Below are positions 7,245 through 7,610 of a stretch of 64,000 nt of DNA, piece after piece (the stretch's first letter is position 1; every line of letters starts with the position of its first letter). The position numbers and the translations under genes are program-made. Below the pieces are notes generated by a model. It was given only the letters and a program-made list of their open reading frames with translations, had not been told where the DNA came from and made no database searches. The stretch comes from Candidatus Omnitrophota bacterium (lineage in GTDB: Bacteria > Omnitrophota > Gorgyraeia > Gygaellales > Profunditerraquicolaceae): contig JAQTQG010000002.1 in the NCBI GenBank assembly GCA_028712375.1, positions 8,032 to 72,031 of the forward strand, read 5' to 3'.

Positions 7245-7299
7245 ATATTTTAATGCGCCTGGGCAAATTGAGCACCAAAAAAGATTGTATTCAACGAAA

Positions 7300-7381
7300 T
7301 CCTTGCGAGCGCAAGCGAGCAAGGACAAGCACCTTACAGCCTTTATCCAGCGCAGTCCCCGTGAGCGCAAGCGAACGGGGA
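7300..7381. repeat. Two adjacent hairpins with identical loop (GAGCGCAAGCGA); member of the dispersed CCTTGC...GCAAGG hairpin family
   Basis: Hairpin 1 is tccttgc-gagcgcaagcgag-caagga at 7300-7325. Hairpin 2 is tccccgt-gagcgcaagcga-acgggga at 7355-7381. Confidence 0.7.
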
Positions 7382-7408
7382 TAGGCACATTCTTTAGTTT
7401 TTAATAAA

Positions 7409-7482
7409 TGCGCCTGGGCCGAATCGAACGGCCAACAACCGGCTTAGAAGGCAGGTGCTCTATCCAATTGAGCTACAGGCGC
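7409..7482 (-). tRNA. tRNA-Arg (anticodon TCT)
   Basis: Reverse complement reads GCGCCTGTAGCTCAATTGGATAGAGCACCTGCCTTCTAAGCCGGTTGTTGGCCGTTCGATTCGGCCCAGGCGCA. Cloverleaf with T-arm GGCCGTTCGATTCGGCC. There is one U-C mismatch in the anticodon stem. Confidence 0.8.
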
Positions 7483-7518
7483 ATATTTAATTATCAAATG
7501 AACTCTTATCGGGCACTA

Positions 7519-7543
7519 TCCTTGCTCGTTTCACTCGCAAGGA
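7519..7543. repeat. Hairpin repeat tccttgc-tcgtttcactc-gcaagga (same family as 7300, 16946 and 33098)
   Basis: 24/25 nt identical to the copy at 33098-33122. Confidence 0.7.
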
Positions 7544-7610
7544 TTAAACTCACAGACGCTCCGCTATAATTTACCTCACTTACGTTCCGTAAATTATCTG
7601 TTCGTTTAAT

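Follow-up and report, generated by a model that had tools for sequence, protein, structure and literature searches.

A duplicated tRNA-Arg 3' end enclosing units of a structured repeat family in an Omnitrophota genome

The main finding of our study is that a 64,000-nt stretch of a Candidatus Omnitrophota genome (referred to as "the window" and analyzed over its whole length) contains a duplicated 3' end of its tRNA-Arg(UCU) gene that, as we consider probable, goes back to a 155-nt insertion of an Omnitrophota-specific structured repeat, with the duplication made at insertion and the inserted units serving as sense-strand RNA hairpins or barriers. Our verdict from sequence comparison is that the insert is a miniature chromosomal repeat instead of what is left of a phage or genomic island. 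Most knowledge of Omnitrophota comes from metagenomes, and much of the evidence presented below comes from metagenome loci that are syntenic with the window. The locus is composed of the following features:

5915-5991: tRNA-His (ARAGORN; Rfam)
6012-7244, minus strand: DUF748-family gene directly downstream of the insert (ORF; Pfam PF05359)
7252-7264, minus strand: distal repeat copy, 9 nt ahead of the DUF748 ATG (exact 13-mer; empty-site relatives L121, L118, and L125)
7265-7325, minus strand: repeat unit 2, consisting of hairpin 7300-7325 and the decayed linker TTTCGTTGAATACAATCTTTTTTGGTGCTCAATT (covariance model R1, 18.5 bits; alignment A6)
7321-7389, minus strand: repeat unit 1, consisting of hairpin 7356-7381 and the linker CTGCGCTGGATAAAGGCTGTAAGGTGCTTG at 7326-7355 (R1, 82.8 bits, E = 3.6e-20)
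7390-7406, minus strand: A/T-rich junction after the tRNA, running into AATGTGCCTA (sequence; 5' flank of the R1 match)
7407-7419, minus strand: proximal repeat copy, made up of tRNA positions 63-73 and 2 bases of the trailer (exact 13-mer)
7409-7482, minus strand: intact tRNA-Arg(UCU), anticodon tct, no encoded CCA (ARAGORN; Rfam tRNA 62.5 bits)
7511-7551, plus strand: family hairpin without linker, stem-loop 7518-7544, in the tRNA-Pro/tRNA-Arg spacer and antisense to the tRNA transcript (R1, 22 bits)
7552-7610, minus strand: spacer module with nested hairpins (CAGATAATTTACGG...GTAAATTATAG...GTCTG), common to L039, L172, L148, and L152
7611-7685, minus strand: tRNA-Pro(UGG), anticodon tgg, first gene of the presumed co-transcript (ARAGORN; Rfam)
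7794-7822, minus strand: promoter-like site TTGAGA-17-TATACT with TG, upstream of tRNA-Pro (consensus match only)

The partial direct repeat of the tRNA-Arg 3' end that the initial annotation of the window had pointed out is real: A search of all 64 kb found the exact 13-mer AATGCGCCTGGGC in two copies, at 7252-7264 and 7407-7419 (the former had been placed correctly and the latter one base off, at 7406-7418). The concern that the 13-mer might also turn up at random elsewhere did not materialize, as there is no third exact copy in the 64-kb window and the next-best matches have 2 mismatches. On the tRNA strand, the 13-mer reads GCCCAGGCGCATT and comprises tRNA positions 63-73 together with 2 bases of the trailer. 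The duplication starts in the T-loop (position 59) and was ancestrally 16 nt long (TTCGGCCC...), of which 13 nt are exact in the window; the distal copy retains the ancestral trailer and has decayed to TTTGCCC... in the window. Since the duplicated 3' end bounds the insert, tRNA-Arg stays intact. That the duplication is more than chance is shown by aligned relatives and not by statistics, because the same 16-nt duplication is found in about 10 related loci and absent from about 35.

These relatives were obtained from an alignment of three DUF748 proteins, with which 57 metagenome loci were retrieved; an exact look-up of the DUF748 and RdgB proteins of the window found neither of them on record. 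Two loci from the genome scan described below, L071 and L039, have the gene order QueF, fumarase, RNase PH, RdgB, tRNA-Pro, tRNA-Arg, DUF748, and tRNA-His. Across about 57 syntenic Omnitrophota loci, the insert behaves as an insertion/deletion polymorphism: Most relatives have no more than 8-36 nt between the end of tRNA-Arg(UCU) and the DUF748 start codon, and about a dozen are filled. The closest relative, L121 (90% nucleotide identity in DUF748), has an empty site, and L121 plus 155 nt gives the window; at the junctions, the distal copy TGCCCAGGCGCATTAAAATATATG of the window corresponds to GGCCCAGGCGCATTAAAACATATG of L121, and the trailer of the empty site matches the sequence that follows the distal copy. 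Similarly, L039 is filled and L151 empty at 93.8% nucleotide identity. In the DUF748 tree, filled loci occur scattered and the basal branches are empty. The comparison shows an ancestral state in which tRNA-Arg abuts the DUF748 start codon.

Filled loci (the window, L120, L131, L135, L136, L141, L147, L172, L071, and L039) contain two or three copies of TTCGGCCCAGGCGCAT (tRNA positions 59-73 plus 1) that lie 86-155 nt apart, and decayed versions are present in L126, L152, and L153. Decay of the distal copy was observed in the window and in L126, L131, L135, L152, and L153. The direct repeat is confirmed as a genuine insertion footprint by the relatives without insert, in whose clean empty sites the trailer is matched by what follows the distal copy. 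The integration half of the original reading of the repeat as a footprint of integration and excision is right in form. Loss of the insert is presumed: Direct repeats of 13-16 nt make an exact removal possible, and such losses would account for the patchy distribution.

The inserted DNA, i.e., bases 7265-7406 plus one repeat copy, amounts to about two and a quarter units of the repeat family. As the initial annotation had described, the segment between the copies holds two hairpins, at 7300-7325 (TCCTTGC/GCAAGGA) and 7356-7381 (TCCCCGT/ACGGGGA), whose stems differ while their 12-nt loop (GAGCGCAAGCGA) is identical. The third hairpin of the same family, upstream of tRNA-Arg, spans 7518-7544 (ATCCTTGC-TCGTTTCACTC-GCAAGGAT) and has the opposite orientation. 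This third hairpin module (7511-7551) is also found in L039, L172, L148, and L152, and the adjoining spacer module (7552-7610) is missing in loci with a spacer of 11-16 nt. The stretch next to the distal copy that had been likened to a T-arm, GGTGCTCAATT (7265-7276, minus strand), turned out to be the 3' end of the repeat-unit linker; an origin as a T-arm relic is ruled out by recurrence of the motif without a tRNA at 33144-33153 and in relatives. At the other end of the insert, AATGTGCCTA (about 7382-7391) looks, from its sequence, like the truncated 3' end of a further unit. We had considered it as a relic of the tRNA 5' strand and dropped this idea since arrays of units have the same AAGGTGCC-type junction, hence a truncated unit end.

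Most filled relatives carry a single unit with the stem TACTTGC/GCAAGTA that is preceded by GGGCC and whose junction runs from ...GGTGCTTG into TTCGGCCC. This common insert (unit plus second copy) measures 75-77 nt and is 80-96% identical between loci whose DUF748 proteins are 53-58% identical, a conservation that is equally compatible with repeated mobility and with one ancient insertion held by selection and precisely lost many times. In L136, the second insert belongs to another subtype, in which ...GGTGCTCAATTC meets TGCCCAGGCGCA, and the gene-proximal unit of the window (repeat unit 2) is its homologue, with a TGCCC change common to both. The arrangement in the window corresponds to that of the two inserts of L136 except that 37 internal nt containing the middle copy are missing, and it is best read as the inferred outcome of two insertions followed by a deletion between GTGCTTG repeats. 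Both L135 and L136 have arrays of copy, unit, copy, unit, and copy (2-3 reiterations), and L120 contains a further fragment of 25 nt whose boundary differs. The trailers that follow the proximal and distal copies are alike (summed score 113 compared to 92 +/- 6.5 in shuffles), a likeness seen in L172 and L039, and the duplicated segment may, on this sequence similarity, reach into the trailer.

A full unit of the family is 55-57 nt long and consists of a hairpin of 7-9 bp with a freely varying stem and the conserved loop TCGC-NNNN-GCTC, followed by the linker ACTGCGCTRGATAAARNCTATAAGGTGCTYRATT. We built covariance model R1 from 21 units (alignment A4), and it matched 8 times at 4 loci of the 64-kb window with filters off, and 71 times in 93 sources (578 kb) of related loci. 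Besides the matches at tRNA-Arg, those in the window are:

16861-17006, plus strand: two further family units in the tRNA-Leu leader (R1, 53.6 and 87.2 bits)
33090-33215, plus strand: a further unit and a hairpin-only copy between convergent genes (R1, 28.5 and 15.9 bits)
53923-53990, plus strand: a further, diverged unit (R1, 31.6 bits)

For a wider view, a 17-base linker pattern was scanned against 185,579 species genomes, which returned many chance matches; those with hairpin and full linker context came exclusively from metagenome-assembled genomes (MAGs) labelled Omnitrophota/Omnitrophica or "uncultured Planctomycetales". In Rfam 15, neither the hairpins nor the units had a match at gathering or permissive thresholds, and the window as a whole matched only tRNAs and a tmRNA, with otherwise chance-level matches in 7200-7800 up to E = 10. 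(The tmRNA, at 14803-15209, has an unusually long predicted tag, ANTQVSRLGTFVQPSFAAKPMFVPAFGLN.) Our search of the literature on Omnitrophota repeats or tRNA-targeting miniature elements found nothing relevant, and the structured repeat family restricted to Omnitrophota-type MAGs is apparently previously undescribed.

The covariation analysis that had been suggested for these hairpins bears out their structure, since stem pairs are kept through compensatory changes. Across 95 cells, changes on both sides were seen in 6 of the 7 stem pairs of hairpin 1, with an alignment that was fitted to the model and hence leans towards structure; the ungapped alignment A4 gives 5 of 7. Paired cells make up 92.6%, compared to 81% in shuffles and 35-45% with slid partners, and 0 of 500 shuffles reached the observed covariation score. 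Wobble pairs are almost all U-G on the sense strand of the unit, a bias that, in an alignment fitted to the model, points to the sense strand acting in single-stranded form. No covariation was found in the alignments for a second helix of the unit, GCGCU/GGUGC.

Units are intergenic, lie mostly on the sense strand, and in some cases form tandem arrays with a period of 54-62 nt. By neighbor-strand counts that rest on crude ORF calls, a unit has the same strand as both adjacent genes in 22 cases and is opposed to both in 4, and it usually starts 1-50 nt past the upstream stop codon. One example is a unit of L018 (6838-6905) between the ATP synthase c and b/delta genes (Pfam-checked); in L056, a unit (279-347) follows a very similar upstream gene end, apparently at the same position, and the loops of the two differ. 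Around tRNA-Arg, all 14 downstream units are sense and all 9 upstream units antisense. Targeting of inverted acceptor-stem halves is one reading of this split, and selection is another. Parts of the linker and of tRNA-Arg are alike (GCGCT/GGTGC compared to GCGCC/GGCGC), a similarity whose excess over chance could not be shown. A unit of L029 (4410-4500), upstream of a gene that by its first residues looks nusB-like by eye, is followed by GGCGCATTAATTAC, which resembles the decayed tRNA-Arg end and trailer of L126 (GAGGCGCATTAAATTAC) with no tRNA nearby. It may be a transposed copy of a unit plus its target, or chance.

What these units do at tRNA-Arg depends on how they are transcribed. Only the promoter-like site at 7794-7822 makes a good candidate for driving tRNA-Pro, tRNA-Arg, and DUF748, and no promoter-like site was found by consensus match inside the 155-nt insert. 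A promoter within the linker (TATAAG/TAAGGT) was rejected because a fitting -35 element is missing and many units precede a canonical promoter of their own. Empty sites leave 8-36 nt without room for a promoter, so that DUF748 must be read through from upstream, and the units are probably transcribed within a tRNA-Pro/tRNA-Arg/DUF748 co-transcript as predicted from this arrangement. An efficient terminator role is unlikely given that DUF748 and atpF follow units directly with no promoter of their own. We propose that the units would act in the co-transcript as sense-strand RNA hairpins in the manner of REP elements, and their position and strand bias, from which this role is inferred, make a stability or processing barrier the most likely function. 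Elsewhere in the window, a near-consensus promoter recognized by eye (TTGACA-17-TATACT, 16800-16828) is followed by the two units in the approximately 170-nt leader of tRNA-Leu (16800-17004).

Duplications of tRNA ends are not confined to the 3' end of tRNA-Arg. Duplicated 5' ends of 12 to about 25 nt that end in the D-loop were found upstream of tRNA-Arg in ten relatives and upstream of tRNA-His in L128 and L136. In four loci, they surround a multi-hairpin element of approximately 90-140 nt:

L121, 655-850
L136, 5222-5420
L071, 6397-6506
L039, 986-1096

The three-hairpin 5' elements of L121 (at tRNA-Arg) and L136 (at tRNA-His), each approximately 125 nt long, have about 80% identity, their stems differ by compensatory changes, and each is bordered by the 5' end of its own tRNA. 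Because alike elements have different tRNA flanks, the duplication would have been generated at insertion and not carried as a fixed att site on the element, which makes an element-borne att site unlikely as judged from these flanks. Breakpoints fall into the D-loop or the T-loop. Smaller end events with other fillers affect tRNA-Pro (L133, L141, L071) and the tRNA-Leu of the window. In the latter case, the 3' end of tRNA-Leu(cag), CTCCTCCCGCAT at 17076-17087, recurs 32 nt downstream at 17108-17119 with no family unit, and the 20-nt filler (TAAAATCTCATGAGGAGGGA) is able to pair with the 3' strand of its own tRNA. At tRNA-Pro, the leader sequence GCCACGC (window 7675-7728; L071 6130-6220) is complementary to the tRNA 5' strand, and in L071 the leader and the first bases of the tRNA are duplicated around a small hairpin. 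L126 has 513 nt between tRNA-Pro and tRNA-Arg with a small ORF that, by eye, resembles a response-regulator receiver domain. Overall, among 31 intact tRNA-Arg genes, the 3' end is duplicated in 4 and the 5' end in 8, to which intron-bearing loci are added, compared to 2 of 50 for tRNA-His and 2 of 39 for tRNA-Pro.

Based on these data, we suggest that a copying-in process would leave the recipient in the A/T-rich trailer and re-enter it through a short ATT-type match within the T-loop. Such copying could be the work of a trans-acting transposase or recombinase acting on the GGTGCTYRATT end of the unit or, as an equal option, of template switching during replication or repair that captures an abundant repeat as filler; either way, the target duplication would be created at the moment of insertion. 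Long flanking repeats are present only at tRNA sites and absent from units elsewhere, where none of at least 9 nt was found except one 10-mer, and staggered-cut transposition that always gives 13-16-nt duplications is for this reason not the general mode. In a weak test with approximate queries, tblastn revealed no credible IS200/IS605-, IS608-, or RAYT-like gene in the 64-kb window. The anatomy of the locus fits three processes, namely insertion directed by the element through its GGTGCTYRATT end, template switching that captures filler at tRNA genes under heavy transcription, and repair of endonuclease-provoked breaks. The excess of events at tRNA-Arg fits the first and the last of these, and variable boundaries and fillers fit template switching and break repair. 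Of the two origins offered in the initial annotation, the miniature element using tRNA ends gains from the insert being made of dispersed-family units, while the remnant of a larger element finds no support, as the copies in about 57 syntenic loci are never more than 155 nt apart and enclose no recombinase.

The last of the three processes deserves separate mention as an explanation of its own, which we regard as unlikely while still giving it some weight: Homing-endonuclease breaks in intron-less tRNA-Arg alleles would have been repaired imprecisely, with tRNA ends duplicated and hairpin repeats captured on the way. About 20 relatives have an insertion of approximately 650 nt in the anticodon loop of tRNA-Arg(tct) with an ORF for a PD-(D/E)XK endonuclease (PF11645), which from its sequence looks like an intron with a homing endonuclease; L039 (about 1137-1770, ORF 1260-1721) is one of them, next to L117, L119, L120, L122-L124, L129-L133, L141-L143, L147, L150, L152, L153, L155, and L171. 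Break repair would also account for end duplications being much commoner at tRNA-Arg than at tRNA-His or tRNA-Pro and for the variable boundaries and fillers. However, presence of the intron is uncorrelated with presence of the insert across loci, the tRNA-Arg of the window is intron-free, 20-25 nt separate the breakpoints from the anticodon loop, and intron-less tRNAs are affected too, if rarely. The intron class itself has no Rfam match (no group I match).

Two further explanations have, in our view, a rather small chance each. According to the first, a 76-nt block of GGGCC, hairpin, linker, and second tRNA end is a conserved functional RNA module that is not mobile, was gained once and lost repeatedly, and would serve, e.g., as a processing or stability domain for the DUF748 mRNA. 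The constant length of 75-77 nt and the high identity of the common insert relative to the host proteins speak for it, as do variation concentrated in the 4 central loop bases, a predicted GGGCC/GGCCC closing helix, and the predicted fold of the tRNA-Arg trailer in the window (-53.3 kcal/mol, z = -2.45). Yet most relatives including the one closest to the window do without the block, the units of the window have different stems and no GGGCC, and the distal copy has decayed in several loci; the closing helix is invariant and thus no evidence for or against structure. The second, to which we assign the same low probability, would have the units be miniature mobile elements with an undescribed insertion chemistry that is aimed at tRNA genes, enters the D-loop or T-loop, and restores the tRNA by duplicating 12-25 nt of the target. 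The mirrored orientation of units upstream and downstream of the gene would then follow from the acceptor-stem halves forming an inverted repeat (ATGCGCCTG...CAGGCGCAT), and the 3' breakpoint directly past position 58, with both breakpoints in loops, would give room for an RNA- or single-strand-templated step.

Local slippage appears quite improbable. It would first have duplicated the tRNA 3' end and trailer in tandem, with an unrelated insertion of units into the duplicated spacer afterwards, and it could draw on the tRNA-Leu 3' end repeated with a 32-nt period and no family unit, the similar trailers after both copies in L172 and L039, and the copy-unit arrays of L135 and L136. However, several lineages would each need two independent events at one and the same spot, no relative shows an intermediate in which the two tRNA-end copies are not separated by a unit, and the linker end always meets the distal copy at the same point. 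Most improbable of all is a classical att scar, i.e., a phage or genomic island that used a tyrosine integrase to enter the T-loop-to-3'-end block of tRNA-Arg and was later deleted down to attL, attR, and about 140 nt: The repeat does run from the T-loop to just past the discriminator base as att identity blocks do (those of tRNA-targeting integrases typically start in the T-loop), and the distal copy has the original trailer, but among about 57 syntenic loci, the copies never enclose a recombinase or more than 155 nt, the remaining DNA is a dispersed chromosomal repeat and not foreign cargo, different tRNAs (Arg, His, Pro, and Leu) and 5' ends are duplicated around related or other small fillers with boundaries varying from 12 to 25 nt, and a scan of viral contigs for the linker end joined to the tRNA end gave no attP-like match. 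A viral-contig match to the tRNA 3' 20-mer was set aside as a single chance match inside an RNA-phage replicase gene.

The only recombinase near the insert is a large serine recombinase (4004-5614, 536 aa) that is not enclosed by the repeats and is separated from them by the DUF748 gene and tRNA-His. It belongs to a segment downstream of tRNA-His (474-5614) that also encodes a C5 cytosine methylase, a Vsr endonuclease, a 266-aa ORF, a MazG-like protein, and DUF2924, with DUF2924, C5 methylase, and Vsr located left of the recombinase. From its gene content, this segment looks like an integrated restriction-modification island that is separate from the insert.

Being phylum-restricted and showing clear covariation, the structured repeat can serve as a marker and help annotation, and at one tRNA gene the empty, filled, doubly filled, and decayed alleles form a natural series that is well documented. 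The locus further illustrates that a direct repeat of a tRNA end can arise around a chromosomal repeat of roughly 100 nt with no integrase in sight. Such repeats are usually read as proof of an integrase, and we therefore advise caution with island-finding methods that are keyed on tRNA fragments. If insertion is indeed driven by the element, it would represent a new mechanism directed at tRNA loops.

Among known systems, the REP/BIME sequences of enterobacteria and pseudomonads are short extragenic hairpins in many copies that are thought to be mRNA stability barriers. The Omnitrophota family shares with them a many-copy set of short extragenic imperfect palindromes in 3' untranslated regions or between cistrons that are often clustered, have conserved linkers, and vary between close relatives. 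Unlike in REP/BIME, each locus has its own stem sequence, with compensatory changes, whereas loop and 30-nt linker are conserved, and copies at tRNA ends carry long target duplications. No GTAG/CGTC tag was seen in the unit consensus, and no RAYT gene in the 64-kb window with our approximate queries. Miniature elements such as MITEs, Correia, RPE, and ERIC are likewise small, non-autonomous, structured, dispersed, polymorphic in presence, and co-transcribed with neighboring genes. Compared to MITEs, the Omnitrophota unit has no terminal inverted repeats, is asymmetric (hairpin, then linker) and often tandem, and has no regular short target duplication at ordinary sites. As at tRNA att sites, the repeat begins in the T-loop and reaches slightly beyond the 3' end, an intact tRNA is restored, and the original trailer lies by the distal copy, whereas the insert has neither integrase nor cargo and consists of 86-155 nt of chromosomal repeat, and 5' ends and other tRNAs are hit as well, with each tRNA's own sequence being duplicated. 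Finally, the E. coli tyrT locus has 178-bp tandem repeats downstream of tRNA-Tyr that each include the last 19 nt of the tRNA. The arrays of L135 and L136 may resemble it, with copies of the tRNA 3' end reiterated downstream in what is presumably the same transcript, and the window has one distal copy after loss of the middle one; unlike the local tandem array of tyrT, the intervening DNA belongs to a family that is dispersed genome-wide and whose presence varies between close relatives.
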